Positions 446 through 59,650 of a stretch of DNA of 64,000 nucleotides are shown here, piece by piece. The notes beneath the pieces were generated by a model. It saw only the letters and a list, made by a program, of their open reading frames with translations. It was not told where the DNA came from and did no database searches. Numbering within the stretch: position 1 is the stretch's first letter; every line of letters starts with the position of its first letter. The stretch spans positions 15,624,001 through 15,688,000 of the forward strand of contig CM120645.1 of NCBI GenBank assembly GCA_051362555.1, given 5' to 3'. Made by a program: the position numbers and the translations under genes. Origin of the DNA: Lingula anatina (Eukaryota > Animalia > Brachiopoda).

Positions 446-3400
446 CTCTCTTGTTCCTCTTTGGTGGTATAGGGAGCGTCTAGCTCAGGACTGGTGTACT
501 GTGCAGTGCTCTTGGACTTGTACATGAAGTGCCTGAGATCTGCTATCCCCACCTGTGATATACTGTACGACGTCCTGGCAAGAGCCTCCGTTATAGCAGT
601 CAGGCAATTGTATCTGTTTAACCTCTGGAGAGCAAAGTTTGTAACAAGTTGATTACTTAAATATTCTGGTCATTGAATAGAATGTGATAATAAACACAGA
701 AGGTAAGGTATTGACTTTACTAACTGCATAGTGCATGATTACACTCTATGTTGTAACGTAGTCACTGTCAAAGACTATCAGTCCAGGTAAGCAATAAAAT
801 TTTATCCTGAAATAAATTGTAAAAAATGGTCTGCTTTTACTGTTGTTCAGAATAACCATCTTGAGTCTAGTTACTGCTGACTCTGAAAGCTAACTGTGGA
901 TTTGTGACTTAGTGTTAAAAACTGACTAGAATGTTGCCTGTCCTCTGATCGAGGAAGACTAAAATATTTTCAAAATTTACACCTACATAGTGCTAGTATT
1001 TACACTATGATGGAATAAAGAATTCTTTTCTAAAATCTTAAATTTCTGAAATCCTGGCTTTGCCCGTCCTTGAAAAAGAAAAGGTAAAAAGCCTGTTTCT
1101 AGAATTTGATTTTCTGTGACGTTACCCGCACTTTTCTTGACCTTTGTCATTCCAACAATACTTACATCCACTATTTTCTGCCTGCACTCAGATAGGGTAA
1201 AGAACATGTCCCTGTCTACAGTGAGGAGGAGCAGACATGTCTGACATCCAGGGTCCAGATAGGAGACATAGGCATGAAGAAACCCACTGAAATGGGAAAG
1301 CATATTCTTAACATAGTACATTGTACATGGGCACCTTTCACAGTATGCTGATTATATTCAACAATATCATAAAACAATGCTTTCAAGATATTTTCTAGAA
1401 TCTATTTATTTTTGTTGTACTAGTTCTAATCACAACTGCTAAAATACAAAAAGTTAACATCTGTTGTTAGATTTCAGAAAACAATTTGAAGTCTTGCATA
1501 TGATAGACTTTACAGGTATAAGAAAAGAATACTACATCAAACTTGACAGATCATAGGTCTTTTTACAAACATTAAGCTAGTAATATAAATTCTGGAAAAT
1601 TTCAATTTAATAACACTAAAATGTTCATTTGATTTATATCCAAAATATTTCTCACCTTGCATCAAATTTTGGCAGACATATTGGTGTCCACGACTCAGCA
1701 GCTTTGAAACTCTCCGAGGCATTGACTAAATTGATGATGAGGTGAAGATCTGACGGATGCAGAAAATATTTCTTCATCCTCACCAGAGTGATGAGCTGGT
1801 TATTTGCCAGTAGAATGGCAAATACCAAATCCTGGAGAGAAAACATGCTATAGTGAGTAGTGAAACACCTACACCAATTGTAATTGAAACAGAACAACAA
1901 TGCTCCATATTCTGAAATATTACACCTACTTTACATCAATATCTTTGTGAAGAGACAATTATCATAATTAATATCATAAAGTTATAATTGGGGTGGGTGG
2001 AGAGGTGGCCACGGGGGTTAAAAGCTTGATTACTTATTTTCTTATTTTTCAAATTCAAAACCTTTTTAATAACGTTATTTCAAAAATAGAAAACCAAGAT
2101 GGAGTAATAGCAGTAGGAAATTCATCTGCATGTGATTGTAATATTTTACAACCAATGTTAATGGCAAATATTCTTACAGAATTATCCTAATGCAGGCCCG
2201 TAGCCAGGGGGGGTTCGGGGGGTTCAAAAGAACCACCCCTTTTGCTGGGAAAAGGTCCACTCTGGGTAAAATTTGATCTAGGTACATATAGTTTTATGGG
2301 AAAAGGTCCACTTTTTCAGAAAAAGAACCCTCCTTTTGAATTTGCTGGCTTCGGGCCTGTAATGAGTTAATATTCTCCTCATATGCCCACTCACCTTAAC
2401 ATTAGCATTCTGTACAATACTCTGAGCTATATTCTCTCTTGTAGAGCTGGGTAACGGTAGACATCTCACAGCTCCCAGCAGAAAACTCGGCTCATGGTCC
2501 ATCAAGTGCAATAAATTATCTATAAACTTCTCCGACCCCGTTAAAAGCCTCCTTAGATCATAGTTCCGTCTCTGTTTGAATATCTTGTTCAATTGTGTAT
2601 ATGTCAACACACTAATGATCTGATTGTATACATAAGTTAATTGGAATAAAAGTTGATGGTATGAGTCTTCAGTCTTTGCTACTGCCACTAAGTTCAGGTT
2701 TTCCCTGTTAAGGAAAACAAACTTATGATTCCCTGCAATAAGGCAGCGTAAACTGTCATTACCATCCTGCAGGAAGGACACTAAAGCCTGCATCACACCC
2801 ATGATGGTGACTAACTTGTCTTCTTTCCCATACCTAGAACAGATAAATAAAAACATATGTATATGTAAATAAATATCAACTTGTGACTCTACACACAACT
2901 GTTTTATTATACCTGGACAGGAATTGATATTTGGCTGATAACCAGTACCTAGCTTTTCCTCTTCTTTTTTCTTTTTTTTTTTTTTTTTTTCAATTGCAGA
3001 TGCTATACAACTTTTTTTCTTGTCTTCTGCTTTTACTAGTATAACAAAGTCATGAAAAAACAAGCAGTAAGTCAGAAATATTTAGATGGCTTTGCTAAGT
3101 GACTAGCTAAGTGTGTGACCTGGGCACCTGTTAAAGATCATGACAAACAATAACCAAAATTACTCTACTCTACCAGTACCTTGAGTAAATAGGTTTCCCT
3201 GCCTCACTAAGAACAAATATATGTTTTCTTTGACTCCTCCAGGCCTCTGTTTGCACATTCTCCTCGGAGTCACTCTCTATCACAGTTAAACCTGATGCGG
3301 ATGGACCACTAGATACTGCTGCAGTTTGCCCTCCTTCCTTCTCTTCTTCCTTGCTGGCTGTTGTCTCATCAGAAGACGTAAGGGACAAATCTTCATCGTC

Positions 3401-10521: not shown

Positions 10522-13470
10522 GGGAGGGGGGGGGTAACAACTTCAAGATGGCAGTGCCCCAAGATTACTGGCTATATACAACATTGGTCAAAAATGTTGT
10601 CCCACCCCCAATTCCATGTGCTTTTATTCACAAATGATCACCACACAGGTGTAAATTGTTATTAACAGTGCTGTTTTAAACAATTCCATTCCCCCTCTTT
10701 TATATTTCGACGGGCACAACATAGCGTTAAGATGAAAGCGATGATGAATTGTGATGCAAAACTTTTGCCTGTGCGTTCTTAGAAGAGAAAATATTGCCCT
10801 TAATTCACGCACATGTTGTAGATGTATCTAGGATTATCAGTATGCCTCAGTTCAAAACAAAGAATAAAATATGTTGTTTGTAGCGCAAAAATTCTGATCA
10901 CCATGGTAAAATCACCAATGTCAAATTACGCGCAATTACCCTTAAGAAAATTTGACCACGAGGTTTAAACTATAAAGTCGTCTGCATAATTTTACTGTAC
11001 CAATTTTTATCAAAAAGTGTCACCTAACAGGTTAACTGTCCTTGACCTCGGTTATGTGCACCCCTGATGATCGAAACGACAATCAGGCGCTTCTTTACAA
11101 AACGTTAAGTTAAATTTCTTTATGCAAGTCCTTAAAATGCCAATGATGTTTTTTTTTTTAATATTTAAAAATTAGTGATTTTAATAGTTTTCTGCTACTG
11201 CGTGTGGATACTACATGTATATAATTTCTTTGACATCTGTACTCCCGGGGTGTTTCGATTTTTTTCCTTATCCCCTGACATGGAAAGGACGTTAAACGAA
11301 GACTGTCAGAAAATATCTTTGGATCCGCCCCTGCGTTTCATATGGCTGTACCTATAAGGGCAAATTCGCTGATGCATCAGCGTGTGTCTTGTATTATGTA
11401 TCTTTGCTACATGCCAGACGTAACCTCCTGACATTCAGCTATCGCCATTATAATCATTATCTTTTTTACTTTGTGTTGTACGAATGGTCACAGGCTTCGC
11501 TTCTAAAGTGTGCGGTGAGGCGTCATGAAATAATCTAACACTGCAGCTTTTTTCATTATTCCCTGCTGCGGTCTATTATGCTGGTATATAATTTTCTGAT
11601 ATTTGTGTGTGTTGATTTCTTTCCCAATCCTGAACCTGAGGAAAAGGTTTGCATGAAAACGCTTGTAAAGACACATCTGTTCATGTGACACTTTGTATCA
11701 CATTACATTCATTTACGGCCTGCCAGAGGTAATCTTACGTCCAGCATTACCACCATTATACTGGGTAGACTTACATGTAGTATATTATTATTGTGTATGC
11801 CACAGGCTACAGTTAATTTATTTTCTTCTTTCAACTTCAATTGGCCTTTCAACAAATTATAGCAATGAAACTTGTACAGCTCCAGTTAGATGTATCTATT
11901 TTAAGTATTATTATTTAGGTCATTCCAATCCAAAAACAATTTTGTAAAACTGCATTCTGTTCAACTGTTCAACGGAGAATGGGTGACTTGATAACAACTT
12001 GAAATAGACAGTGCCCCAGGGTAACTGTCTATTTATACACAGTCAACCCTCTTGTAACCATTCCATGGTCCTCAGCAGTTCGTTTCCAATACTACATGTA
12101 CCGGCCTTTTGCTGTGCACGGTGATAACTCTTGGCTTAGTCGAGAATCTAGGATAATGCATTTCACTTCCTTGAAAATCACCCATGTGTGTGTGTGTGTC
12201 TGTGTGTGTGTGTTTGTGTGTGTGCGTGCGAACGTGCGTGCGCGCGTGTGTGTGTGTGTGTGTGGATAGATAGATAGATACATTTAAATAGATAGATTAT
12301 AATGGAGAGTCGTGGGAAAATGACACATAATAGATATTACCAGTAACTTAGAGCGCACTATAACCAAATAAGGGAATGTTGACAGATAGGCAAGAATATT
12401 AGGTTATTAAAAAACCAGAGATGCATCGTGGTATTGGGGCTTAACATGAGAAGTTTAAAAGGAAAGTCTTATGAGTGTATAATCAGAATATACGAATTAA
12501 TCTTTTTGACAACAAAAGGGTGTATCTCTCCTTGCTCTCTCAAAGTGGTTTAAAGACCCATCGCATGTCTTCCACATGGTCTTTTTGGAGAGCGGCTGTT
12601 GCCATAGTTAAAATTGTCATATTAGAATATAGGTGACTGACTACGGTTTATGCTCTGTGTCACTAAAATTCCTTTCGTTTCTTTTATAGAAACTGACGTT
12701 GGTTATTGTTAAGTGACTTCATCTGATGGGTTGTATTTGTGAACGTCGGTCTGCTGATAGGAAATATAAAGTAGATTTTGTCTTCGTCGGAGGACTAGCG
12801 AGGTTTTTAAATTTTGAGGTTTTTGCTTACCTCTTTGTTTCATTTTTTTTTTCTTTAATGACCTCATCCTCTACCACTTTATCATAGTCACGACGACGAC
12901 GAGTTGGAGCTTTCAAATGTATGTTTATTCACAGACATACTTTTCATATAACAGTAAATACAAAAGTATTTATATCCAATTTCTCCTTACTGAGGCGCAC
13001 GTTTGCTTGTTTTCTTTACATCACATTTTGTGTGACCACAAGATTCTTTCTTTTCTGATTTGTCATTTCACTATCCAATATGTTCTTATAAATCAATCTC
13101 TGTGAGCCTTGTTTTCAATTTAATGTCTAAAATATTATTCCCATTTCATCATACTTCCTAAAATATTTCTAAGCAGTTGGTACTTAAAGTTGAATAGTGT
13201 TTCAGTTTTTGGGATTTTGATCACACGATCTCAAGTTTTTTCTTCTAGTATTTTTGGAAAGATCAATGAATTACAATGCAAACGGGCGAAAGTTCAAATA
13301 TAGTAGACGTTTTAATATTGATCAGAACTATTGCAAAATATATCGGATATATCAGGAAGTCATGAAAAGTCAGAATTCGCTTAAATGGACTATAAATTGC
13401 CGTTATAATTTTTTTAGATTTTCTTATGAAATACCCTGACAAAATGCAGCCAAATTAGTTTTCTTTATGC

Positions 13471-16000
13471 TTACTGAAATATAACTAGAAAGAGCAAACA
13501 TAAGAAAGCAATAATTACAGAGGAAAGCAATGACAGAGGAACAGAATTCAAAATTGATGGTAGTCGTAGATTAGACCTCACGAACGCCTGTCCCCAACAA
13601 AACAACGTCTTACTCCAAGACCGTGCAAATGTTTTCTCGATTATGTTGCCGTTGATATCGTCGTCAGACAGCCTGCCCAGAGCTTTGTTTCGGGCAAATA
13701 AAACTTCGTCACAGCGCTCTTTCATGTTACTCTTAAAGTTGGACACCAAATCTTTTGTTAAAAATCTTGATGAAGTCATTGGACTTTCAGCTAGGTAGTC
13801 CGGTACCTTTCGCGCATGTCCCAAAATGAAGGCGTAATATACCGTAATCAAATCAGCCTTTGCTTGGGCCAGCTGCTTTGTCGGAAAGAGATTTCCTGTA
13901 GTGCTTTCTTCTAACTTCTTTAATAAGACCCTGGAGGTTTCTGGGATATTTTGCCGCGTCCTCTTTCCAAAACGGCTCAATTCGCTGGAACCTTCCATGT
14001 CGCAAAACACATTTAGTGCCTGGAAAATGAGAATTTCCGCAGCAGACGACCCAATGGCTGAGTCTAAACCCCACGCAATCATTCCCTGTATGTGCGGAGC
14101 AAAGACCTCCCTTGAAACGAAACTGTCGTGCATTATTTCATTGGCCTGCTTCAGGAGTGCCGAGAGGTGTCGCTTTGCAAGATACACCTTTTCTACCATG
14201 TGCTGTTCGACGTTATTCCGTTCGTCTGCGGTAGTGAACGTCTGAAGAAAGTCCATGTACTCTCCGACAGGAGTGAGGATGTGAGGAGCTTCACACTCGG
14301 CTTTTGCAATCATAAGCTTGAAGTTTGTTTCCTGATACGCTGTTTCGGGGTCGAAATTCCAGTTGAACTTCATCCCCACAGGCAATCCACTTTCGTCATA
14401 AATAGCGTTGCATACTATTAGTGAAAAATGGTTGCCACGATATGGGAGGCCAAAATAATCATTCACCTGTAAACAAAGAAAAGGAAAAAAGAACAAAACT
14501 ACATCTAACACTCAAGATGTGCTAATAAATTAATATCCCTTATCACTTGTGTTGTTTCTGTCGGGAAGGGGGAAAGTAATACTGATATATATATATATAT
14601 ATTTGGAAAACTACCCTTTTACAACGGGGACAGCACAATGCATCTTTATATACTACGGTATTTGCAAGTAAGGAATAAAAAGCCTCTGTAAAGTTATATT
14701 AATTTTAACGCCTTATGATCCAGATTTTTTTTCGAATTGGCTCGGAATGGAGACCCAACATGTTCGTCCTTCACTTAAACTTTAGGCCCCAAATATCCCT
14801 AGTGTAAGAGATACTTTTCCAACCTTACTTTCTCTTTGAACAATGCGTAGTTTTACAAGGAGGATTTATTTTTAATATTTTCTAGCCATTTTGTTTTATT
14901 ATCTCTACATTTCAACTGTTGAAAGAGGCTGAACCAAGACGAGTGATCATTGACCTATCGCTGATCACTGTATGTCCCATGCTAAACTCATGTTTTTTTT
15001 TAAAAATAACCTCACAATAGTTAGATGCCTGAACGACACCCGTCCATTGTAATCTAGGTAACTTATTAAAGATAATTTTGGGCTACCTCCCCGGGTCCAT
15101 ATCTTATAGACAATGAAAGTAACGGATCATTTGAATATCAATAGTGCATCTCTTAACCCCCATGCCAAGGTAGCCTCTCACCTCTTGGCTGGCAGTCAGT
15201 TGAGATGCACCCAGGATTGCCGTAATCTTAGACTTTTTTCATTAGATGCCTTTTTTTACCTTTTTAAAAGGGTCCCAGAGCCATTCAGGGAACTCAAGAG
15301 TGCTTCTTTCCCGTTCCAGACTCGTGGTCGGTACAGTGCCCCAACGATAGGCGTGTACCAGATAGCTCAGACAACACAGGTAGCCCGCCAGCATCGGGAT
15401 ACACTCCGTGTCAATCAGAGACCTCGTGACCTCGTCAACTTTCAATAAATCGACCTGAATGAATGAATAACTGGATATACATTTATGATGGAATATAGCA
15501 ACAAGGCAGCAAAGCTGTCAAATGTACAGACGAAAACCAGGAAATAAAAACGCAGGAAATAGGATACTGTCAATTCTGATGAACTAATGTATTATGCTTA
15601 CTGTAACTGCATAGCCAACATCAAATTCTTATTCTGCATAACATTGGATTAGGATGAAAGTAAAATGTGTATCAAGCATTAGACTAAGTTCCCATACCTA
15701 GATCAATCTAACAGGATCAATCCAACTCCAAGGGGTTTCTCACTAAATTGCTTTCAGTTTGAGAGTCTTAGGATTCTGGCATGCCAGTTTCAGTAGGCGT
15801 GACAGACAACTAAGCCACTTACATTGATTGCAATTTAGCAAGAATTCCCATGGAGATAGATCGATCCACAGTTAGCGTGATAGGGTCTGGAAATAGTTCC
15901 TAAGGTGTCAGGCTGATAAGAGTTAAACTTTGGAAATGCCAGAATGAGGTACAGTGAAAATTACACACAAAAAAAAAATTGCTTAAAATCATTACAAAAA

Positions 16001-16069
<69 letters not shown>

Positions 16070-19000
16070 TTATTATTAATTTTTTTTTTGGCTGTATGTC
16101 AATCCTAAGAATCATTCTTGTAACTTAACGAAATACAGAAAATGTTACAAAGTAAGAGTACAGGGCTCCTGGCAGATGGGAGTGATAAGTCACAACTTGA
16201 AAATGCCAGTATAGCACTCTATAAACCTGCATTGCCTCCAAAACAGAAAACAATCACACTGGTTTTCAAACACAAGCTGCACTTCTGTCTTATGAAACTC
16301 GTAAGTAACATGGTTTTCCCTTAATCGCTATCCTGGCAGCAGTGTCCAAAATAGGGTTTTTTTCAACTTTCATGCAATTAAACATAATACACAATATTAT
16401 AACAGGTTTACCGTCATTTTATCAACAAACAATATTGTTCAGAAGCAGAAAATGTCAAAACAACACTTTTACATATCTTATTAGTTCCATAATGAGACTG
16501 TTAACATGCCTAAGAATTAAATCTGAAGAAATAAAAATTATATACAAAAATACAGAAAATGCACAGCACTTCTGGTGGATGGGAGTAAAAAATCACATCT
16601 TGAAGATGCTAGTGTTTGAAAAATAATTTTAAAAATTTTTTAAATAAAATGTAAAAAATTCCAATAAAGCTGCTATTCAAACTTTTAATCTAGCTGTATT
16701 AACTTGATATTAATAACCCCACCAAGTTTGAGAAAAATAAAGCACTGTTATTCATCTATAGCATGTTGGCATAACACATTCTTTTTGTTGTAAATTTATT
16801 TGCAATGTTTAACACCATTTATCTGCACAATTATCACCAAATCCTAATTTTGTGACACAGTTAAGAGAGCTAAATCTATGGGACTTTACAGGGAAATCTC
16901 AAGGAGTGTTTTATGTAATCTCATTTAATGGCCAATTGAAAATTAATGAGTAGGCAAGTGACTTTATAGACCTTAATTTAATTAGTGATCACCCAAGGGA
17001 CAATTTTACAGACTGCCATCCATACAGTACCATTATATAGCACAAAGGTGTTGCATACATGCTGAAAAAAGTGAAAAAACAGCATTACTTCCCTAAAAAT
17101 GACCCGATCATGCTGATTTTCAAACTTGACCTGCGTATTATGCATATTCATCAGTTCTGTAAGTTTGAAACCAAAAGGTAAAATGGTTTTCCACTTATTG
17201 TGTTATCGGTGCTGCATATATGCTGAAAAAAGTGAAAAAAAAGCATAACTACCCTAAAAATGACCCGATCATGCTGATTTTCGAACTTGACCTGCGTAAT
17301 ATGAATATTCATTAGTTCTGCAAGTTTCAAGCCAAAAGGTAAAATGATTTTTCACTTATCATGTTATCAGTGTTGCATATATGGTGAAAAAAGTGAAAAA
17401 CAGCATAACTTCCCTAAAAATGACCCGATCATGCTGATTTTTGAACTTGACCTGCGTATTATGAATATTCATCAGTTTTGTAAGTTTCAAGGGAAAAGGT
17501 AAAATGGTTTTCCACTTATCGTGTTATCGGTGCTGCATATATGCTGAAACAAGACAGCACTGTTCTGCAATGGGTTTACTTCCATTTTTAAAACACTTTT
17601 TTAACATAAAACAAAATAAACAGTTTTCTACCATTTGTATATGATCAACTAAGAAAATTGATGAGATGGGAAAAATATCAATAGAACAGTGTTAAATGTC
17701 CAATTTCCTCCATTCTGAGATAATGAATATAGTAGATGATAAAATCTGACAAACTGCAATGATATTTGTTTATTTCCATTTTTGACACTTTATAACATAA
17801 TACACAATAACAAGTTTACCATCATTTTTACATAATCAACTAACAATGTTATTAAGATGCAGGAAATGTCAAACAAACACTTTAACGTATCTTATTAGTT
17901 CAATAATGAGACTGTTTTCATGCCTAACAATTATATCTGAGAAAATGTGAAAAAACAGCATAACTTCTAAAATAATGGCCTGATTATGCTGATTTTCGAA
18001 CTCAACCTGCGTTTTAGTTTGACTACTCCTGTGAGTATAATGACAATTGGCCTATCTGTTTTTCTTATATTGTGTTATTAGCGTTGCATATATGTTGAAA
18101 GAAGTGAAAAAACAGCATAGCTTCCCTAAAAAAGGCCTGCGATGATCATGCTGATTTTCGAACTTCACCTGCGTATTATGAATATTCATCAGTTCTGTAA
18201 GTTTCAAGCCAAAAGGTAAAATGGTTCTCCATTTATGGTGTTATCGGTGCTGCATATATGCTGAAAAAAGAGAAAAAATAGCCTAAATTCACTAAAAATG
18301 ACCCAATCACGCTGATTTTCGAACTTGACCTGCGTATTATGAATATTCATCAGTTACGAAGTTTCAAGCCAAAAGGTAAAATGGTTTTCCACTTATCGTG
18401 TTATCGGTGCTGCATATATGCTGAAAAAGTGAAAAAACAGCATAAATTCCCTATAAGTGACCCGATCATGCTGATTTTCGAACTTGACCTGCGTATTATA
18501 AATATTCATCAGTTCTGTAAGTTTCAAGCCAAAAGGTAAAATGGTTTTCCACTTATCGTGTTATCGGTGCTGCATATATGCTGAAAAAAGTGAAAAAACA
18601 GCATAAATTCCCTATAAGTGACCCGATCATGCTGATTTTCGAACTTGACCTGCGTTTTACGAATATTCATCAGGTCTGTAAGTTTCAAGCCAAAAGAAAA
18701 ACAGTTTTCCACTTATCGTGTTATCGGTAAAAGTGCACGGCGACGACGGCGACGGCGACGGCGACGAATGACGCAGATGACGGCTATATGTACAGACATA
18801 TCTGTGTCTGTACATAAAAAGAAAGAAAGCAAGCATGAAAGAAAGAAACATATAAAGAACGATGAGAGAAATTGGAAATCCAACTTTCAGTTATCTTCAG
18901 TTAAGGGAGACTAAATAGAAAATATATTGCCGCGTGTGTGTTTGGCACCCTGAGCTTCAGAGCTAACTTGACACTAACCTTTTCACTGTAGCCTATCTCC

Positions 19001-20276
19001 ATCGTGTCAAGTAACCTCTGACCAGATTCGAGTGCCTCCGCCGCCCGCCAATCAAATTTAAAGCCCGCACTCAATGACTCATTGAACGATCTAGCCAATG
19101 AACGCGAACGAGTCAAAGCGCGCTTTGTTCAAATCCGGACCAATCAAAGATAAGGCTGAATATCAGGGACTTGCCGTAACCTGTGGGCAGCACGCAAAAT
19201 ACATCATCCCTCAGTAGATAATAATGCAGGGCATCATACTGCTCTGGTTTCAATTCCGATATACTCCATGCTTTCTTTGTGTACGGTTATGCACTCGGAA
19301 CCACTCGGAACTACTCGGATGTCTCCGCACTCGACAATAACTATGTTGTTAGTATGGAGCTTGCGGAATCAGCCGAGGATTGCCGATTGACGATCAACCA
19401 ATCAGCGTTTTCACCAAACTTTGGTGAAAAATTTTGAAACATGGATTCGATTGGCTTATATAAAATAGGTCAAACTATTTTCGTCAGAGGTTACTTGACA
19501 CGATGGAGATAGGCTACAGTGAAAAGGTTAGTGTCAAGTTAGCTCTGAAGCTCAGGGTGGTGTTTGGGTATTTCTTTAAAAAACGCTTAGTACTTTGGAG
19601 TACTTTTAAAACGAAATTATGGTATCATCACCGTATTTTAAACAACAAGAAACTTATTACAGAGAAAGATAGAGAGAATCAAAACCTGAAATTTAAATTT
19701 AAACAAATTATACTGACCATACTTTGGGCATCTGGCATCCGTTTCCTGAATTTTTCTGGGCTGTTAACTGTTAAGCGTGTGTGATATGAGGGTGTGCAAG
19801 AAATTGAGATTGGAAAAAAGAAGGGGGTTATCAAGTAAAAAAATAGACGAATAACAGTGTAGATAAAATAGATGAGATAATGGTGTAGTTACATTTGTCC
19901 TTTCCTTCTGAAAATTCAGACCGATAGAAATATATAGCTTGAAAGCCCAAAAATGTCTGCGACGTGTTTGTTTGTATGTTTGCGTGTGTGAGAGAAAAAT
20001 AAGAGAGTGAGCAAAAAAAAGAGAGATTCTGGAAACTGAGTTTCATATTTAAAAAATTATACTGACTCTGTTAAATTCCTCTGTCATCCATTCCCTGAAC
20101 TTCTCTGAACTGTTGAGTGTGTGTAACCTCTCTGGCATTTCAAGGCAGACATCTTGATAGACTTGGAAACATGACGGCCAGTCGTAGAATTCTGGTCGAG
20201 GAGGGTAAACTCCACCAAATTTACCCAAAAAAGTTGGCAGGTACGCCGAGTAAGCACATGTTTGCTGTGTCGCCAT
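13471..20276 (-). CDS. Divergent indoleamine 2,3-dioxygenase (IDO/PrnB)-superfamily heme protein, 466 aa, C-terminal hydrophobic segment
   Basis: Exons 20276-20067, 15454-15260, 14466-13471, all phase 0 GT-AG, form one open frame. Motifs LSYLVHAYRWG (cf. IDO1 LGCITMAYVWG), GSSAAEILIFQALNVF (cf. GGSAGQSSVFQCFDVL), RQNIPETSRVLLKKLE (cf. RRYMPPAHRNFLCSLE), LGHARKVPDYL (cf. SYHLQIVTKYI, proximal His codon 13816-13818). Confidence 0.8.
15500..18817 (-). mobile_element. Helentron-associated non-autonomous element (HINE/DINE-1-like) with internal 161-bp tandem repeats, in intron 1 of the IDO-like gene
   Basis: On the minus strand: T-run, subterminal ATGTACAGAC inside a hairpin, (GTCGCC)n microsatellite, tandem 161-bp units, matching GTCTGTACAT, short stem-loop CAGC-TTT-GCTG and TTGTT end. 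Same ends at 56797-59650. Confidence 0.75.
15683..15904. mobile_element. MITE-like dispersed repeat (GTTCCCATACCTAGATC...GATCCACAGTTAG..GATAGGG..TGGGAA) nested in the HINE
   Basis: Homologous copies at about 40108-40376 and a right-end fragment at about 43188-43234; imperfect terminal inverted repeats. Confidence 0.6.
18946..19559. mobile_element. 614-bp MITE with 77-bp perfect TIRs (CACCCTGAGC...) and 8-bp TSD GTGTTTGG
   Basis: 18946-19022 is the exact reverse complement of 19483-19559; GTGTTTGG at 18938-18945 and 19560-19567. Superfamily not determined. Confidence 0.92.
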
Positions 20277-23598: not shown

Positions 23599-26500
23599 TT
23601 AGGGGCTAGAAACCTCGCCAGGGACGCTTGCCAAAGATGAAATGATACCGCAGTACACGTCTACTCCCGTAAGGAATACCCTCTCGTTCAGAAACTCGTT
23701 GTGGTCGTGAAGCGTGATTCGAGTGTTGATCATTGGCGAGAAGCCTAGTGCGGGAAGCCCAAGCTACAAAAAATGTGAGAATAACCATTAAGAAGTGCAT
23801 ACACAGATATACAAGACCTTACTTCTGTTCAAGGCACATAATGAGTGTTGGGCCTTAATATGACATATTTTCCTGGGATTTTCAACGCTAAATCACCAAG
23901 GAAATCATACCCATATCAAAACCGTTCACAGAATTACAACTAATTATCCTGAACATTATGGTGTAATAAGTCAGCAAAACTGATTTTTATAAATTGATTT
24001 TAGTTTCATTTGCTTCAATTGGGATTCATTTCATTTATTTGCTCAAATTTTTCCAGCTGTAGTGTCATATTTAATTTTGGAAAACAAAAGCTAAACCCCA
24101 GTGAAGTAAATTTTAAATTTTCACAAAAAAACTGTTTAACTGGCAGTAAGAATTACCAAACAGACTGCATTGCCTACTGAAGCTGTATTTTAGTCCCATG
24201 TTTCTTTCCTGTAAGTTTGAGAACAGTAAGTGACATGGTTTTTCTTAAATGGTCATCATGGGGGCAGTGCCCAAAATAGTTTTTTTTTTTCAAATTTTGA
24301 TGCAATATTACATAATGTTTAACAGCATAATGATGAGTATTATGGATATTCAGAAAATGTTACTAGCAAAGGTCTTCAGGCCCATGGAACTTCAAAGTCA
24401 CAACTTGAAAATGCCAAAATGTAAACAAGACAGCACTGTTCTGAATTTTTTTTTTCCATTTTTAACAATTTTTAACATAAAACAAAATTAACAGTTTACT
24501 GCCGTTTTTATATGATCAACTAAAAAAATTGATGAGATGGGAAAAATATCAATAGAGCAGTGTTAAATGTCCAATTTCTTCCATTCTGAGATTCTGAACA
24601 TAGTGAATGTCAATGATTGAATCTGACAAACTGCAATGATATGAGTTTATTTCCATTTTTTGAAACTTTATTACACAATACAAGATAACAAGTTTACCAT
24701 CATTTTTACATATGTTGTAAAGATGCAGGAAATGCCAAACAAACACTTTTACTTATCTTACTAATTAAATAATGAAACATGCATGTTAACATGCCTAAGA
24801 ATTAAATCTGAGGAAATGTGAAAAAACAGCATTTCTTCAAAATAATGGCCCAATTAAGCTGATTTTTAAACTCAACCTGCGTTTTAGCAGGAATGACCAC
24901 TCCTGTGAGTTTACTGACAATTGGCCTATCTGTTTTTCTTATTTTGTGTTTACAGTGTTGCATATATGCTGAAAAGTGAAAAAAAAAAGCATAACTAAAA
25001 TAGTGGCCCGATCATGCCTATTTTCTAACTTGACCTGCGTTATAGTAAGATTGATTACTCCTATGAGTTTCATGACAACAGGCCTAACGGTTTTCCTTGA
25101 AATGTGTTTACAGTGTTGCATATATGCTGAAAAGTGAAAAAACAGCATAAGTTCTACAATAATGGCCCGATCATGCTGATTTTCGGACTTGACCTGCGTT
25201 TTATGGATATTCATCAGCTCTGTAAATATACAGCCAAAAAGTAAAACTGCCTTCCACTTATCGCGTTTACAATGAAAGTGCACGGCGACAGTGACAGTGA
25301 CGGCAACGCCAGCCACGACAGACGCAGGTGATGGCAATATGTACAGACACATCTGTACATATTTACTGTACTGTTTGAGAACAGTAAGTGACATGGTTTT
25401 TCTTAAATGGTCATCATGGGAGCAGTGCCCAAAATAAGTTTTTTTTCAAATTTTGATGCAATATTACATAATGTTAAACAGCTTAATGACCATCAATTTT
25501 TAATCATAAAATATTAGTATCATGGATATTCAGAAAATGTGACTAGCAAAGGTCTTCAGGCCCATGGAACTTCAAAGTCACAACTTGAAAATGCCAAAAT
25601 GTAAACAAGACAGCACTGTTCTGAAATGTTTTTTTTCCATTTTTAACAATTTTTTTAACATAAACAAAATTAACAGGTTACTGCCATTTTTATACGATCA
25701 ACTAAGAAAATTGATGAGATGGGAAAAATATCAATACAACAGTGTTAAATGTCCAATTTCCTCCATCCTGAGATTCTGAACATAGTGAATGATTGCATCT
25801 GACAAACTGCAATGATATGAGTTTATTTCCATTTTTGACACTTTATTACACAATACACGATAACAAGTTTACCATCATTTTTACATAATCAACTAACAAT
25901 TTTGTAAAGATTCAGGAAATGTCAAACAAACACTTTTATGTATCTTATTAGTAAAATAATAAGACTGTTAACATGCCTAAGAATTGAATCTGAGGAAATG
26001 TGAAAAAACAGCATAACTTCTAAAGTAATGGCCCGATCATGCCGATTTTCGAACTTGACCTGCGTTTTAGTAAGATTGATTACTCCTGTGAGTTTCATGA
26101 CAACAGGCCTAACGGTGTTCCTTAAAATGTGTTAACAGGGTTGCATATATGCTGAAAAGTGAAAAAACAGCATAAGTTCTACAATAATGGCCCGATCATG
26201 CTGATTTTCGAACTTGACCTGCGTTTTATGAATATTCATCAGCTCTGTAAATATAAAGCCAAAAAGTAAAACTGTCCTCCACTTATCGTGTTTACAAGGA
26301 AAGTGCACGGCATCGGCGACGGCATCGGCATCGGCATCGGCATCGGCATCGGCATCGGCGACGGCATCGGCGACGACAGACGCAGGTGATGGCAATATGT
26401 ACAGACACATCTGTGTCTGTACATAAAAAGGGTTTTGCTTCATCACAACTGACATTGACACTTCCTTTCACTTCTTCCGAATGCTCTATATTCGCCACCT

Positions 26501-32600: not shown

Positions 32601-35600
32601 TCAAGATAATTCCTGTTTTATAGTATTCGTCCGTGGGTTTTTGTTCGGAGAGTGGGAATGCCCCATAACTATACAAATGGAAGTATAAATGTGTACTACG
32701 TAGTTCAAAAACCAAACATCTAATTACTTAAGTTATTCAAGTAATTGTACTGATTTAACCAACGGTGAGCCAATTAAGACACCTACCAGTTTTTCAATGG
32801 CAGTATTTTGGACTAAATTTGCACCAAGACCAGCATTTCCAGTGCATGTCACTTTAATCCCTAAAACATAAATATGAAAAACTGTAAGTCTCTGGACTGT
32901 TATTTGATATACATGGCAATTCCCCATATGAAGTGATACTTTTCACTGAAGAAATGACAATAAGAAGTGTCGTTATGAGAACCAGTATAATTAAATGACG
33001 TAATGAAAAAATTGAGCAATGCATTTCTTATGATAAATTCAATGATTGTTACGTATTAGTTATCAATATAGTTTGCCTCCAATATTCTCTACCTCAAAGA
33101 AATTTCACTGTTGCACTATCTTTACTGAGGAACACTGGAGCATTTTGGTTTTAATTTCAGTAAACGCCAAAGCGTTGAAAGCAGCATATCTCCCTAAAGT
33201 TGGCAACACCTAAGTCTTTGAAGATGGCCGCCTTTGATATGCTCCACTTCAGCATTGTGTGCCTCATGAATCTGATCGTGCTCATAACTGCACTGAACCT
33301 GGGGTGGTGGTTCAACAAGGAGAGGTTTGACGTAACGCAGTCACAAATCCCAACTATCGTCATCATGGCCATAGGTTCGATGTGTATATTAGCTGTAACC
33401 TGTGTAAGCACATGGAAAGACGATACGGAGAGCCAGCGTCGCCACGGGCATGACTCATTGGGTAGAATGCTGAACCACTATCTTCCTCTTCTTGGTGTTG
33501 TGATATTTGGACTCGGCAGTTGCCTATATTCTGGTTTAGATGTCGTGGAGCAATATATTTGTCTACGCGCCTACCAGGCGTTCAATACTGATGGCGTCTT
33601 TGATAGCCTAGTCACTCAGCGTTATGTTCTAACTGCCTTCCACGGAGCGCACTGTATTTTCGTTCTCATACAAATTGCGTTTTTGGTGTTGACGTTTAAA
33701 GTGGACAATTATGCAAGGAACAACGCAACTTGCAAGGTTCTTATATGGTTTGGAATTGTCTTTACAATACCTGGCAACATTGGAGTCTTGTTTTATACTT
33801 TTATATCGGGATCTGTACAGCATGGCTTCGTACCGCCACATGTGCCAGATAACAAAACTTTGGGCAATGCCACAAGACTCTGTTTACAGGAACAGAGCCC
33901 TCTGGAGGATACAGTCCATGAAATATTACGTCCTGTTTGCCACCCAATGATAATCCAATATTGTCTAATCGTGACGAGACTGTTACTTCAGGAGTTAAGA
34001 AAATTGACCCAAAGGAACGTGCCGCCAATGGATACAAGTATGGAATCTCAATCAGATTCGGAATCTTTTGGACAAGAGACAAACGTTGTACCTGATGTCG
34101 ATTTGAACAATGTTAACCAAATAAATGGGGAAACACAACTAAAGCATCTCACAGACAACATTCCTCTGCCATCTTCTCAGCCAGGATCTGGAATGTCCGA
34201 GCAAAGACAAGACCTAGATGAAAACGTTCTTGGTGGAAATACAACTGGCACTCCTTCGATGGATATCGAAACTCACCTTAGTCGCAGAGCAGGCTTTATA
34301 GTGAGGCCTGTATCTCAACCAGAGCCGGGCGTGTCTGACATGAGGAACGGCGTAAGTGACCCCCTCATTAATGACGACCCACAAACAAATCAAGCAGTTG
34401 CTTCAGGACGCGGATCCAAACTTTACAATTTGTTATTCAACCGCGTTATAGCAATATTCCTCGTTCTGGTACAAATAGTTGCCTACATATCTGTCATCGT
34501 TCTAAAGACAACCCAGGTTTCTGAAACACAGAAAATCAACTACGACATTATTCTTATCTCATGTTTACTGGCTTTCTCGGTATACGCTCTTTGTGCTACG
34601 TGCGTCGGTTGCTACTCCGCTATTTTCAAACGACAGATAGATGCCGATAACTGTGTCTGTGAATTTTCATTTGCTGATGTTTTCCTTTTGGTTATGTCGT
34701 CTACTGGAAGCTTGATATTCAACTTCTCTGTTCTTATATGTGACGTTACAATATTCGAACAACCTACGTCTCATGAAGTTTTTGTTCACACCGTTATTTC
34801 ATTCATATACCGCATTTTGATGGCCGGCCAAATATCAGCTCAGGCATACTTCATCAACTCTGGACAAAGATTTGGTGTGTATTGTGGGACAGACCTTTCC
34901 ATTATGACAACCACTTTGAACTACCTAATTGTAGCAAACATAGGCTGGTGGGGGATAAATGCCTTTATAGGACCCTGGTATTTTAAAAAAGTGGAATTTC
35001 TAAATAGCTGCTTCGGTTCAACCATATGGCCAACTATGTTGAGGTTCCTGACGCCTTTGCTCGCGTTTTTACGGTTTCAGTCGTTCACTATGCTGTTAAG
35101 GTATCGCTACGAGGGGATCGTAATGGCGGGTGAGCAATAGCGGTCACGTGCAGATTGAAAAAGCTGTAATGCACATATTTGTGCATTTGTGTAATGTATA
35201 TAGTATAACTTTGTGTAATGTATATGGTATAACTTAGGGTGACTACTAATACTGCGTATTCCACATTCCTTGGTTTTGATACCAGCATTTGATCAGTTCG
35301 CTCTCTCTATCTGTGCGTGTGTGTGTGTATGTGTGTAAGTGCGGGTGTGTGTGGTTGAGTATGCGTGTGTGTGAATACATGCCTGACCTTTAAGAAAATT
35401 TCTGCTTTTCCGAAAATTGCTACTTTCCCAAATACTGATTTATGGATTGCATTGCCAATGTAAGTTTGTTAAAAGATAAAGCATATTCTTTGTACAAATT
35501 CATAATTATAATAATAATAAAGATAATTGATAATAATAATAATATCTTACACCATGGAGACCTCTCTGCATTGTAGACTCTGTATACGCCATCTTCACTT

Positions 35601-42029: not shown

Positions 42030-43150
42030 GAGGACATCATGCCAGCAGCACCCAAAATTGTGCTTTCTTCCAATTTGATGCAATATTATATAATGCTTAA
42101 CAGCATAATGATCATCAATTTTTTTATAATAAAATATTGGTATCATGCATATTCAGAAAATGTGACTAGCAAAGGTTTTCAGGTTCATGGAACTCCAAAG
42201 TCATACTTTGAAAATGCTAAATGTATACAAGAGAGCACTGTACTGAAATGGGTTTCTTTCCATTTTTAACTTTTTTACATAAAATAATACAGTTTACTGC
42301 CATTTCACATGATCAACTAAGAAAATTGTTGAGATGGCAAAAATATCAATATAACAAGTTTAAATGTCCAATTTCCTCCATTCCGAACATTGTGAATGAT
42401 TGAATCTGACAAACTACAATGATACGAGTTCATTTCCATTTTGGCACTTTTTTTACACAATACAAGATAACAGGTTTACCACCATTTTTATATAATCAAC
42501 TAGCAATATTGTCAAGACGCAGAAATTGTCAAACAACCCATTTTACATATCTAGTAAATTCAATAATGAGACTGTTTACATGCCTGACAATCAAATCTGA
42601 GGAAAACCACTTATATACAAATAAAAGCTGAAGTCCCTCAAAACTCAACCAATCAATCTTATTTTTAAATTTGATTTGTACATTAATAACATTGATCACT
42701 CCTGTGAGTTTAATGACAACAGGCCTATCGGTTCTCCCTGAAATGTGCTTACAGTGTTACTTATATGCTGAAAATGGCAGAAAAAAAACAGCATAACTTT
42801 TGACAAAAAATGGCCCGGATATGCCGATTTTTGATCTTGACAACCCTTTTACTAATAATCATCAGTTCTGTGAGTTTCATGACAATAGACCTATTGCTTC
42901 TCCTTGAACTGTGTTTACAGTGTTGCATGTATGCTGAAAAAAGCAAAAACAACAGCAAATTTTCTGAAAAAAAAAGCAGCCCATTATGAAGATTTTCAAA
43001 CTTGACCTGCGTTTAACTAATAGTCATCAGTTCTGTGAGTTTCATGAAAATAGACCTATCGGTTCTCTTTAAAATGTTGCATCGCATATAATATTATGCT
43101 AAGAAAAGGGAAAAACAGCAACTTTGTAAAATTGGCCAGATCACACTGAT
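42030..43150 (-). mobile_element. Older, degenerate fragment of the HINE family
   Basis: Homologous to 25410-26200 and 58215-59000, including diverged 161-bp units; termini missing. Confidence 0.7.
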
Positions 43151-45834: not shown

Positions 45835-48800
45835 ATGCCTCCACTCCTGCCAAGAGAGCGCCAGATTTGTACTGACAGCCATGCTAAGGTATAGTTGGGT
45901 CAAAACACGGTAATGGGTCAAAAATCTTTAAAATTGTCTGTAAAATGTCCCGTCAGAGACATTTCAAATACCATGTTTGACCCATTACTAGTAGGCCCAG
46001 TAGGGGCTCATGTAGAATGGTGATGTACAATGTTAACAGATTGATACACAGGGGCGGATTTAGGCTGTCTTCTGGGTCTTCTGGAAGACGGTCAGATTTT
46101 AAAGTTTACATTGACGGGTGTCTAATTTTTTCTGTCGGAAGATGGTCAAAAAAGGAGGATGAATCAACAAAGATAATTTGGAAGACTGTCAGAAAAATTT
46201 CTCTGGATCTGCCCCTGATACATTATATGTTATGGCCATAGTTTGAAAAGTTTTAAATCAGTGTGGTTTATTAGTATTTGTATTAAACCTCTGATTATAC
46301 AGGCGATATTAACCACCATGAACATGCTGAGAAAGGCCTCTTCATTATGTGATGTGATGTTGAAGGTGGAAGAAGAATACTTTCCAGCACACAGAATCGT
46401 ACTGGCAGCCTGCAGTGACTACTTCTATGCCATGTTCACCAGTGAGGTAGGTGAAAATGTATTGAACAGTTTTAATACCCTGACTAGAATTAACCTTCAC
46501 TTAGTGGAACATTGAGTCCAAGTTTTAGCATATTTTTATTTTGCTTCATCTTTGGAATCCTGAGTAAAAGGTTGGGAAAATTGTCTGAAAGTTGTACATG
46601 ACTTAATAGTCCTTTCGTTAAGTTGAATTATTTTCAGTCGTTCAGGGATACTTATGCTACATAAAACCCTAAAAATAAGATGCATGTTGTTATAGTATTT
46701 GTTGTGTAATAACTGTCAGATGTTGTGTTGTTGCAGTATTTGTTGTATTATAACATCTTTCAGATGTCTGAAAAAGACAAGAACACAATTGAGCTAGGTG
46801 GAATTTCGGCCACTGTCATGGATGTCCTGTTAGATTTTGTCTACACGGAAACAGTCAATGTCACTGTGGAAAATGTCCAGGATCTTTTACCTGCTGCTTG
46901 TCTGTTACAACTCACTGGTGAGTATATATGTATCAAAAACATAATACTCAGTGGAAAATATCAGAATATCTTGTGTGTTGTTTGTCTTTTACAGCTACTG
47001 GTGATTATAAGGGCAGTACATGTAGTGTTTTATTTAACATTGGGAAATCTTGTGCATCACTTGCCTGGTGATTTCTATTACAACTTGCTGGTGAGTTCAT
47101 GTATCAGTAACTTTTTTATTTTCCATAAATGTGGATGCCCAGGACATGTTTGCTGCTAATTATCTACTCTACAACTGGTAATTTTAGTTGAGTGAATGTT
47201 TTGTGTTCATGTATTAAAGTCTTGTTAGCATTTATTTGAGCATGCATTTTGTGAAGGGTTTCCTTAATTGTTCATTTTGATAATGCGTAACTAGTAATAA
47301 GCACAAACAAGGAAAGGAAACAAAAAAATCAAACTGAATAATTTTTTTTACACTTTAACAGATAAAAATGAAGTACTTGCACTTTTATCTTATGGTATTT
47401 TCCAGGAGTAAAACAGGCATGTTCCGACTTCCTAGAAAAGCAACTGGACCCTTCCAACTGCCTTGGTATAAGGACGTTTGCTGAGAACCATTCTTGTAAG
47501 AATCTCCAGGAAGCAGCAGAGAGTTTCCTGTTTAAGCATTTTGAAGATGTCATAGGGCAGGAAGAGTTTCTGGGACTTGAGGTGGAGGATGTAGAAAAAC
47601 TCATTGGTAGTGATGAAATTCAGGTAGGATTGAGGAATAAGCAAAAGGAATACTCTAGTCTACTTAAAATGTGACTTTTTTTATCACTTAATGGATGACT
47701 AAGTGCATTGTGATTATCTACACCAATATTTGCCAGTGCATGTGAAATAAATGATAACAAATGTTTTGAGTCATGTCATTTGAATGACAATAATGGATAA
47801 GAATTAACTAAGTCAAATATAACCTTTGTTGTAAATGCAGGATATACATATATATTTATGATCATAGGAATTATATTTTGCAAAAATTTTAACTTGCAAC
47901 CATAAGTACAATTTCGATTTGAATATGTTTTATCAGATAGTCGGCTAGTGCTGCATGACATTCTCTAACTGTTACAAATATTAACTAATATTATAATGAT
48001 CTTATTAAAATCTTTATTTGTCAGTACTGTACTTAGCTAAACTGGGCCTGTCTGAATTTATATGTTGTTTTCTAAATTTTCATGTAAAGACATTGTGTCC
48101 TCACAATATTACAGCAAAACCTTGCATGGCCAGTTTTCTGATGCACCATTTTTCAAAAATCAGTTAGACTAGATACTTTCCATCAGCCTTCAGCATACTC
48201 TGTATATTTTTATTTTTTTATTCATTTATTGATATTCTGTTATCAATGTAAAGGTGAGCTCAGAAGAGCCAGTGTTTGAAGCAGTGCTGAACTGGGTGAA
48301 GCTGGATTTGGAGAAAAGAACAGAAGATCTTCCAAAATTACTCCAGTTGGTGAGACTACCATTACTCAGTGTGAGATACATCACAGATGTAGTGGACAAC
48401 CAGGTAATATAACAGAATCTGTTGTCATTATTCTAATAACGATCATTTATTTATTTATTTATAGCAAGAAGCTGATTTTTATTTCAAGTTATTGATAATG
48501 TTGAAGTTAAAGTAAATAAAAAACTTGCGCTGGTTCAATTTTTTAAAAAAATTTTTATATAGTTTTACATTACATTCAAACCACGTGTGACCAACAAACA
48601 TGTCACAACTTCACCCCGCATGGAGTCCACACTCCCTCCAACATGGAAAACTACTCACTTCACTCCTTTTTTACCACTAGAGGGACCCACTGCATAGTCA
48701 CCTCTAACACAATTTAACACAATTGGTCACAACCATACAATATTTGACAGATAAATTGGCAGTTTTTTTCAATGTTGCTGAAAACTTTTCATTTTCTAAG

Positions 48801-57695: not shown

Positions 57696-59650
57696 CTTAT
57701 TTGCAATATAAAACAAAATTTACCTGCATAATTATCACTGCTTCCTTATTATTAATCTAGCAGAGAGCTTAACCTTTGGGAGTTTACAGGGAAATATCAA
57801 CAAGTGTGCTTTATGGCCTATTAATTAGGCAAATGACTTTATAACTTTATAACTTAGCCTACAGATACCCAAGGGAAATTTACAGACTGACCCTCTCAAA
57901 GGTCTTCAGGCCCATAAGTCACACCTTAAGAAAAGCACAAAACAATAATGCACAAAATAGGAGACTATCAATTCTGATACAATAATACATTATGTTTAAC
58001 TGCACAGTCAACATCAAATTTTAATTATGCACAACAGGTAACACCGACGAAAGTAAAAGCATAAGTGAAAGATAAAAATTTTCACAAAAAAACTCTATAA
58101 CTTCCAGAAAATTAACTAATCAGACAGATTTTCCAACTGAAGCTGTATTTCAGTCCTATGTTTCTTTCCTTTAAGTGTAAAAAGAGCAAGTGACATGGTT
58201 TTCCTTTCACAGTCACTATGGAGGCAGTGCCCAAAATAGGGTTTTGTTCAATTTTGATGCAATATTACACAATGCTTAACAGCATAATAACCATCAGTTT
58301 TTTAATGATAAAATAAAACTATCATGGATATTCACAAAATGTGTCTAGCCCATAGAATTCAGACACACTTTGAAAATCCCAAAATCTAAACAAGAGAAAC
58401 TGAATTAAAAAGAGTTTATTTCCATTTTCAATACCTTTTTTTACATAAAAAAAATAATCGATTTACTGTTATTTTTATATGATCAATAAAAATGTGTTGT
58501 CAAAGGAAAAATATCAATAGAACAAATTTAAATGTCCAACTTGCTCCATTCTGAGATTCTTAACTTAGTGAATGATTGAATCTGACGAACTGCAATGATA
58601 TGAGTTCCTTTCCATTTTTGATACTTTATTACACAATGCACAATAAAAGGTGTACTGTCATTTTTATATAATCAACTAACAATATTTTTAGGAAGCAGAA
58701 AATGTCAAAACAACACTTTTACATATCTAATTTCTTCCATAATGAGACTGTTAACATGCCTAAGAATTAAATCTGAAGAAAAACCACTTATATACAAAAA
58801 GGCTAATAACTTCATCAAAACTTAACTGATCAAAATTATTTTCAAAATTGATCTGTATATTAGTCAGACTGATCACTCCTGTAAGTTTCAAGACTGATTG
58901 GTTTTCCTTAAAATGCGTTATCGGTGTTGCATATATGCTGAATAATGGAAAAAACAGCATAACTTTAAATTTGCAAAAATAGTCCAATCAAGCCAATTTT
59001 CGAACTTGACCTGCGTATTATGAATATTCATCAGTTCTGTAACTTTCAAGCCAAAAGGTAAAATGGTTTTCCACTTATCGTGTTATCGGTGCTGCATATA
59101 TGCTGAAAAAAGTGAAAAAACAGCATAAATTCCCTAAAAGTGACCCCATCATGCTGATTTTCGAACCTGACCTGCGTATTATGAATATTCATCAGTTCTG
59201 TAAGTTTCAAGCCAAAAGGTAAAATGGTTTTCCACTTATCGTGTTATCGGTGCTGCATATATGCTGAATAAAGTGAAAAAACAGCATAAATTCCCTAAAA
59301 GTGACCCGATCATGCTGATTTTCGAACTTGACCTGCGTATTATGAATATTCATCAGTTCTGTAAGTTTCAAGCCAAAAGGTAAAATGGTTTTCCACTTAT
59401 CGTGTTATCAGTGCTGCATATATGCTGAAAAAAGTGAAAAAACAGCATAAATTCCCTAAAAGTGACCCGATCATGCTGATTTTCGAACTTGACCTGCATA
59501 TTATGAATATTCATCAGTTCTGTAAGTTTCAAGCCAAAAGGTAAAACGGTTTTTCACTTATCGTGTTATCGGTGAAAGTGCACGACGGCGACGGCGACAG
59601 ACGCAGGTGACGGCTATATGTACAGACACATCTGTGTCTGTACATAAAAA
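56797..59650 (-). mobile_element. Full-length HINE copy with about four near-identical 161-bp units and two nested elements
   Basis: Same two ends as 15500-18817; unit starts at 59089, 59250, 59411 (161-bp period). Nested 5-bp-TSD MITE 56958-57126 and small HINE 57358-57588. Confidence 0.8.
57358..57588 (-). mobile_element. Small HINE-type element of a second family
   Basis: AACTAG..GCACTCTGAGAGCGC stem-loop, subterminal ACCTCTGCCAAGG and its inverted partner CCTTGGCAGAGGT next to a CAGACAAACA tract. Confidence 0.65.

Follow-up and report, generated by a model that had tools for sequence, protein, structure and literature searches.

Apart from a few bacterial exceptions, enzymes of the IDO fold are known to be soluble dioxygenases of tryptophan. 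An intact three-exon gene for a protein of 466 amino acids, lying at positions 13471-20276 on the minus strand of a 64,000-nucleotide (nt) stretch of DNA from the brachiopod (lamp shell) Lingula anatina (the window), belongs to the IDO/TDO superfamily of heme-dependent aromatic oxygenases and is not a canonical IDO.

As reported for human IDO1 in the accounts cited, Arg231 and the GTGG loop bind the carboxylate and amine of tryptophan (PMC5700043; PMC6072487), activity depends on Arg231, Phe226 and Phe227, and the Asp274-Arg343 pair holds a heme propionate, the Asp274Ala change being harmful to activity (PMC6072487). The gene product resembles human IDO1 and IDO2 (PF01231) in its two-domain fold, its proximal histidine, its DE loop and the residues equivalent to Glu171, Trp237, Asn133 and Pro104 of IDO1, but differs in the replacement of Arg231 by Gln, of GTGG by MTSS, of Ser167 by Ile, of Phe164 by Lys and of Asp274/Arg343 by Asn and Ile, and in its predicted C-terminal membrane helix and two introns. 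PrnB (PF08933) and Shewanella SO4414 are of the same superfamily and have the same domain layout (Z 24-25), and PrnB is described as binding the tryptophan carboxylate through backbone and serine contacts, with no Arg contact reported in that account (PMC11791213); however, the structural match to PrnB is clearly weaker than that to IDO, and the gene does not lie in a pyrrolnitrin-type context. MarE and TDO share the His-ligated helical core (Z 10-12.5), and MarE offers a precedent for monooxygenation, but only about 200 residues are matched and MarE is reported to keep the substrate Arg (PMC11904535). Abalone IDO-like myoglobin is likewise an invertebrate protein of the IDO fold, reported to have lost tryptophan activity; it is set apart by its description as an offshoot of ordinary IDO, 34% identical to human IDO1 (PMC4191572).

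Fold and heme site

The kinship to IDO is not visible to simple sequence searches. No IDO match came from searching Pfam, NCBIfam and PDB by sequence, whether with the gene or with its paralogs: neither PF01231 nor PF08933 was matched by the three exon pieces or by 4 full-length paralogs, and direct phmmer left the gene and paralogs unmatched to human IDO1/IDO2. A match to AMA1 (E 0.004) was rejected because the fold is that of an all-helical IDO. A protein language-model search returned IDO clusters at 0.95, and a profile search covering 1.84 billion representative proteins gave 149 matches, the Gln-type subfamily described below; 44 of 72 relatives scanned match PF01231, 33 of them above its cut-off. 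The family profile matches IDO1 at 1.9e-33, while PrnB is not listed up to E 10.

An AlphaFold2 model of the paralog P0006, built from an alignment of 108 rows, reached a mean predicted local distance difference test score (pLDDT) of 91.3, falling under 70 beyond residue 400 or so; an earlier attempt from 5 sequences had given 45.7. Structural alignment of this model gives Z 36.4 with IDO2 and Z 35.7 with IDO1 (root-mean-square deviation 2.4, 338 residues aligned), compared to 25.3 with PrnB, 12.5 with TDO and 10.2 with MarE, and a Foldseek search agrees. Sequence identity to IDO1 is 13-16%, against 37% for snail IDO. A sequence-only reading made earlier had aligned the protein to IDO by eye, placed it in an IDO/PrnB superfamily and judged it not to be a canonical tryptophan dioxygenase; profile and structure uphold the alignment and the fold, and the protein is probably not an ordinary animal IDO, but it is of IDO type rather than PrnB type.

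Residues were mapped by HMMER alignment of the family profile (A4) to IDO1, together with column counts over the family rows; numbers below are those of the gene product unless IDO1 is named, and all positions are on the minus strand. The proximal heme ligand is kept, His352 aligning to His346 of IDO1 (13816-13827, together with Ile349). Glu192, Trp267 and Asn155 are also retained. In rows from outside Lingula the proximal His is found in 81/85, Gly274 in 93/95, Trp267 in 91/95 and Glu192 in 87/99, and the gene product has them all. Gly274 opens the sequence GSSAAE (residues 274-279, 14035-14052), the counterpart of the distal DE loop GGSAGQ of IDO1.

On the substrate side the site departs from IDO1. 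Lys185 and Ile188 (14308-14319) stand at the pocket A positions Phe164 and Ser167. Gln262 (14086-14088) lies at or next to the position of Arg231, with a register uncertain by one residue: HMMER aligns Ile261 there and a third aligner shifts again, while the motif series R-P-Y/F in Arg-type IDOs against Q-P-F in bacterial-like members points to Gln262. There is no Arg or Lys within residues 255-267, so that the loss of Arg231 does not depend on the register. Gln occupies column 262 in 79 of 96 family rows, and Arg or Lys is found at 261 or 262 in only 2/96. The counterpart of the GTGG loop is MTSS (365-368, 13768-13779), which keeps the Thr; GTGG itself is present in one of 107 family proteins.

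A further departure concerns the heme. Asn287 (14011-14013) replaces Asp274 of IDO1, and Ile349 replaces Arg343. Of 84 rows, 71 have both members of this pair and 7 have neither, namely five Lingula proteins, their sister P0010, and P0055. By these alignments, joint loss of the heme-holding pair is nearly specific to the Lingula branch and is that branch's own novelty, as well as the chief point against its being an enzyme; it provides a natural test of how an IDO holds its heme.

The sequence-only reading had named the retained proximal His, the stretch HIQGMIAW in place of the substrate Arg, the change of GTGG to MTSS and the missing Arg three residues before the His, and each is borne out here. 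These traits are real, yet most of them are not peculiar to this gene: as judged from the aligned rows, the missing Arg231, the loss of GTGG and the motif HAYRW (15341-15355) mark a large Gln-type subfamily as a whole, with bacterial-like and eukaryote-like branches. Labels such as these, and likewise fungal-like and probably animal, are our own, assigned from the trees, the patterns of exons and the style of the sequences. No study of the subfamily was found in the literature searched, a search that reached few subscription journals and missed a large part of what is published on invertebrate and microbial IDOs.

The protein ends in a predicted transmembrane segment (residues 446-464, 13480-13536) two residues from its C-terminus, seen in hydropathy and as a low-confidence helix in the paralog model. 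Its Kyte-Doolittle mean is 2.95, against 1.48 for the best window elsewhere and an N-terminal maximum of 0.56. With this single C-terminal hydrophobic helix and no other membrane or signal segment, the gene product is likely to be tail-anchored, as had been proposed. Among eukaryote-like rows from outside Lingula, predicted anchors are found C-terminally in 12/62 and N-terminally in 9/50; bacterial-like rows have none (0/18 and 0/20, respectively).

Predicted function and its alternatives

Loss of Arg231 together with the predicted anchor makes it likely that some other small aromatic molecule is oxidised at a cell membrane. The reading that we favour, from the sequence and the structural model, we would put a little short of an even chance: the gene product may be a heme oxygenase, tail-anchored in the endoplasmic reticulum (ER), that acts on some aromatic or indole compound distinct from free L-tryptophan. 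In such an enzyme the tail would insert post-translationally into the ER, with the catalytic domain facing the cytosol; heme b would be ligated by His352 and supplied with electrons by ER cytochrome b5 or P450 reductase; O2 would be bound by the ferrous heme, facing the GSSAAE loop; and Gln262, being conserved, would hold in place a substrate that has no carboxylate or a masked one, such as an indoleamine, an amide or a lipophilic indole. Insertion of a single oxygen, of hydroxylation or oxindole type, would be more likely than ring cleavage to formylkynurenine. Heme oxygenase-1 has a comparable layout, being all-helical and His-ligated, with a C-terminal tail that holds it at the ER and P450 reductase as its electron source; it is of an unrelated family, however, is not among the 50 structural matches listed, and is alike in layout only. 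Nearer relatives provide further precedents: IDO1 is reported to be reduced by cytochrome b5 and P450 reductase (PMC4032907) and to have monooxygenase activity as a side path (PMC12921851), and the heme-dependent aromatic oxygenase superfamily is described as including monooxygenases (PMC11904535).

The context of some relatives gives a hint of the chemistry. In Bacillus, a Gln-type gene lies directly upstream of an O-methyltransferase gene (PF00891, 9e-42), a two-gene unit seen at L001:6001-8249 and L003:979-3311. Within the Bacillus family, 105 genomes include 2 with a full-length match; genome contigs scanned for P0114 and viral contigs scanned for P0012 yielded no match. Methyltransferase matches are found in 4 of 72 relatives, one of them above the cut-off, and 7 of the 72 matches are fused to a cyclic-nucleotide-binding domain. 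These bacterial-like fusions are P0082, P0088, P0091, P0120, P0134, P0141 and P0149, three with a weak methyltransferase match. A simple reading of the methyltransferase links, by analogy, suggests hydroxylation followed by methylation, and the Bacillus two-gene unit is the simplest system in which the chemistry of the family could be found.

A wider claim can be made, which we hold to be possible but doubtful: the Gln-type branch could be an unrecognised class of membrane-anchored heme monooxygenases, found in bacteria, fungi, protists and many invertebrates alike, whose members make or modify small molecules of indole type on the ER alongside the cytochromes P450, the Lingula lineage having further rebuilt its heme-propionate site. 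The branch is partly invisible to Pfam and keeps the oxygen-activating frame, with the substrate-gripping Arg swapped for a conserved Gln; membrane anchors appear to have been gained repeatedly, at either end, in its eukaryote-like members. If active, these proteins would represent new heme chemistry and perhaps an unknown indole metabolism of invertebrates.

Several observations weigh against an ER-anchored oxygenase of a non-tryptophan substrate. The structural comparison rests on a heme-free model of a paralog that is 78% identical. The threshold for the tail is passed by only 3 of 8 Lingula paralog proteins scanned, and being weaker or absent in several of them the tail is evidently labile. 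The joint loss of Asp274 and Arg343 in the Lingula branch means that heme binding may be weak. The Bacillus loci are of one lineage, the methyltransferase link comes from distant branches, and three of the four methyltransferase matches fall below the cut-off. Only 4, 6 and 2 reads in three RNA runs (12 of 4006) are at least 95% alike to the gene copy itself, and in one allele set 3 of 4 coding differences are non-synonymous. Since PrnB is described as binding the carboxylate without an Arg (PMC11791213), the loss of Arg is compatible with a tryptophan substrate. Finally, the IDO fold is matched (E 4.7e-9) by a 768-residue protein of the giant virus Harvfovirus, annotated as tryptophan-tRNA ligase (BFVD A0A3G5A0E3), which suggests a fusion of IDO with tryptophanyl-tRNA synthetase, and by this annotation some relatives are tied to tryptophan.

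The strongest alternative, although we consider it rather unlikely, is that the protein still oxidises tryptophan, either as a slow dioxygenase or as a PrnB- or MarE-like enzyme acting on tryptophan or halo-tryptophan, with Gln262, Lys185 and the backbone taking the place of Arg231. Its nearest folds are IDO1 and IDO2, it retains the DE loop and, in the GTGG-like loop, the Thr, and it has Lys185 in common with P0010; PrnB is described as a precedent for tryptophan binding with no Arg contact (PMC11791213), and the R118A mutant of MarE is reported still to bind its substrate, about 12-fold more weakly (PMC11904535). However, the equivalents of Arg231, Phe227, GTGG, Ser167 and Tyr126 are all changed, and Arg231, Phe226 and Phe227 are reported to matter for the activity of IDO1 (PMC6072487). 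Furthermore, Arg-type IDO genes adjoin kynureninase in 3 of the 4 loci read, whereas no kynureninase adjoins the sole Gln-type gene whose context was read.

It is also conceivable, at a lower probability, that the Lingula branch, or this gene copy, has become a pseudoenzyme poor in heme or a duplicate in decay, either binding some small ligand or having no function at all. Besides the joint loss of Asp274 and Arg343 (five of the seven rows concerned being from Lingula), the terminal branch of the copy (0.13-0.14) is longer than that of any other Lingula row (0.06-0.10), and RNA reads of it are very few. At 93% likeness no clean exon reads were obtained in three RNA runs; at 84% likeness three runs of one study, 6-25% of each run being read, gave 1278, 1375 and 1353 reads, which lie in exons only and nearly all on the expected strand, and the 793-nt intron 2 is skipped in 91, 121 and 123 paralog reads. 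The Lingula paralogs are thus expressed and spliced, while the gene copy itself is rare or silent in the samples mapped; it may be restricted to a tissue or stage. Against decay, the reading frame is open, and His352 and all the near-invariant core residues are kept; P0010, about 33% identical, also has the joint loss, which is thus old and tolerated; and among 40 listed differences to expressed paralogs, out of 264, synonymous ones number 20, where chance would give 22%.

More improbable still, by analogy with abalone IDO-like myoglobin, the protein could be a non-catalytic membrane heme protein, serving a burrowing animal as an O2 store or sensor or as a nitric oxide or redox buffer. The proximal His is kept while the substrate contacts are lost, expression of the paralogs is good (about 1300 reads for every 12 million read), and IDO-like myoglobins are reported to have lost tryptophan activity (PMC4191572). 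But a distal His is lacking (Ile188), an anchored O2 store would be odd, and conservation of the Gln-type site reaches well outside the animals and extends to fusions with other enzyme domains; the abalone protein, given its reported 34% identity to IDO1 (PMC4191572), is a separate offshoot of ordinary IDO.

Gene structure and descent

Enumeration of GT-AG boundaries gave 5 open models, of which that of 466 residues was chosen; both its introns are in phase 0 and its exon 2 has the best polypyrimidine acceptor. It aligns to the RefSeq paralog P0006 without a gap over the first 430 residues, at 78% identity, and tblastn with P0006 finds the same three blocks, in a single copy within the window. 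The frame and two introns first seen by eye are therefore recovered. Exon 1 (residues 1-70, 20067-20276, minus strand as are all that follow) begins with the ATG at 20276 and holds the W/Y-P-P motif of the family; exon 2 (residues 71-135, 15260-15454) holds HAYRW and is covered by paralog RNA reads. Exon 1 was placed by the boundary search and by tblastn with P0006, as was exon 2 by boundary search and tblastn. Exon 3 (residues 136-466 and the stop, 13471-14466) encodes most of the heme pocket and the tail. Intron 1 (4612 nt, 15455-20066) is a GT-AG intron predicted at a site common to relatives, and intron 2 (793 nt, 14467-15259), also GT-AG, agrees with the skip in paralog reads, which has a CT..AC joint.

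Both intron sites recur in the family. Of the 43 matches of 215 amino acids or fewer, 19 lose homology at residues 68-72 and 10 lose it at 134-138, and three longer matches start at the exon 3 acceptor. Val, as expected from reading through a GT donor, follows 20 of 22 exon-1-like pieces (13 at the exact site and 7 one residue on) compared to 8 of 23 uninterrupted proteins, and follows 11/11 exon-2-like pieces compared to 12/87 uninterrupted rows. Some of these exon-like relatives sit on contigs of 0.6-2.3 Mb; the exon-like relatives are likely to belong to other animals.

Trees were quick searches on 90 of 108, 73 and 39 rows, with 4 prokaryotic Arg-type IDOs as outgroup and animal IDO1/IDO2 left out. 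The Lingula rows nest in the eukaryote-like clade (100 in the SH-like approximate likelihood-ratio test, SH-aLRT), apart from fungal-like and bacterial-like rows, and the clade of Lingula and P0010 (98-99) joins exon-3-like rows (85-88). The approximately unbiased (AU) test rejects a grouping of Lingula with bacterial rows (p-AU 0.0006), two such tests with the same likelihood drop counting as one result and the groups having been named after the first tree was seen. Recent horizontal acquisition from a bacterium or fungus, which the sequence-only reading had raised from HAYRW and the low intron number, and which the bacterial-like and fungal-like branches and the want of any named non-Lingula animal relative among those returned might favour, is therefore very unlikely and largely refuted by the recurring intron sites in divergent relatives, by these trees and by a GC content at third codon positions of 0.50 against 0.45 for a neighbouring open reading frame (ORF), although an ancient transfer may have occurred.

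Within Lingula the family is likely to have expanded, with vertical descent among eukaryotes. A search with exon 3 returned 4 proteins (of 2163 candidates), all uncharacterised, from Lingula anatina and 63-75% identical; the clusters of these proteins carry 7 LOC identifiers, some perhaps haplotype pairs. Overall the gene product is 64-78% identical to uncharacterised Lingula anatina proteins, none of which is the gene product itself, and among the named proteins returned by word-based searches only Lingula is represented. The gene is thus a copy that lacks annotation, or one that stems from a different assembly or a closely related species.

Chromosomal setting

At least half of the words of the gene stretch are present in each of 7 sequencing runs listed by the word index, with no RNA run among those listed, and DNA contigs of run X1, about 99% identical, span 12982-15221. 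Longin (PF19036) and BTB domains are encoded by further ORFs of the window; this indicates an ordinary eukaryotic chromosome setting: one or more exons of a MON1/FUZ/HPS1 longin gene lie at 2278-3081 (minus strand), and one or more of a BTB (kelch-like) gene at 46713-47159 (plus strand). An intronless ORF of 653 amino acids at 33179-35140 (plus strand) encodes a multi-pass membrane protein with no Pfam match at E 0.01, which we take to resemble an otopetrin proton channel. Repeats are frequent. A perfect 77-bp inverted repeat pair, 460 nt apart, at 18946-19559 in intron 1 is likely to be a miniature inverted-repeat transposon, and the same intron contains tandem repeats of about 160 bp from a family dispersed over 17047-17553, 18085-18728, 24813-26296, 42695-43067 and 58917-59574. 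Positions 15500-15900 form a high-copy repeat that the DNA contigs show at very great depth and that also occurs in each of the three RNA runs mapped.

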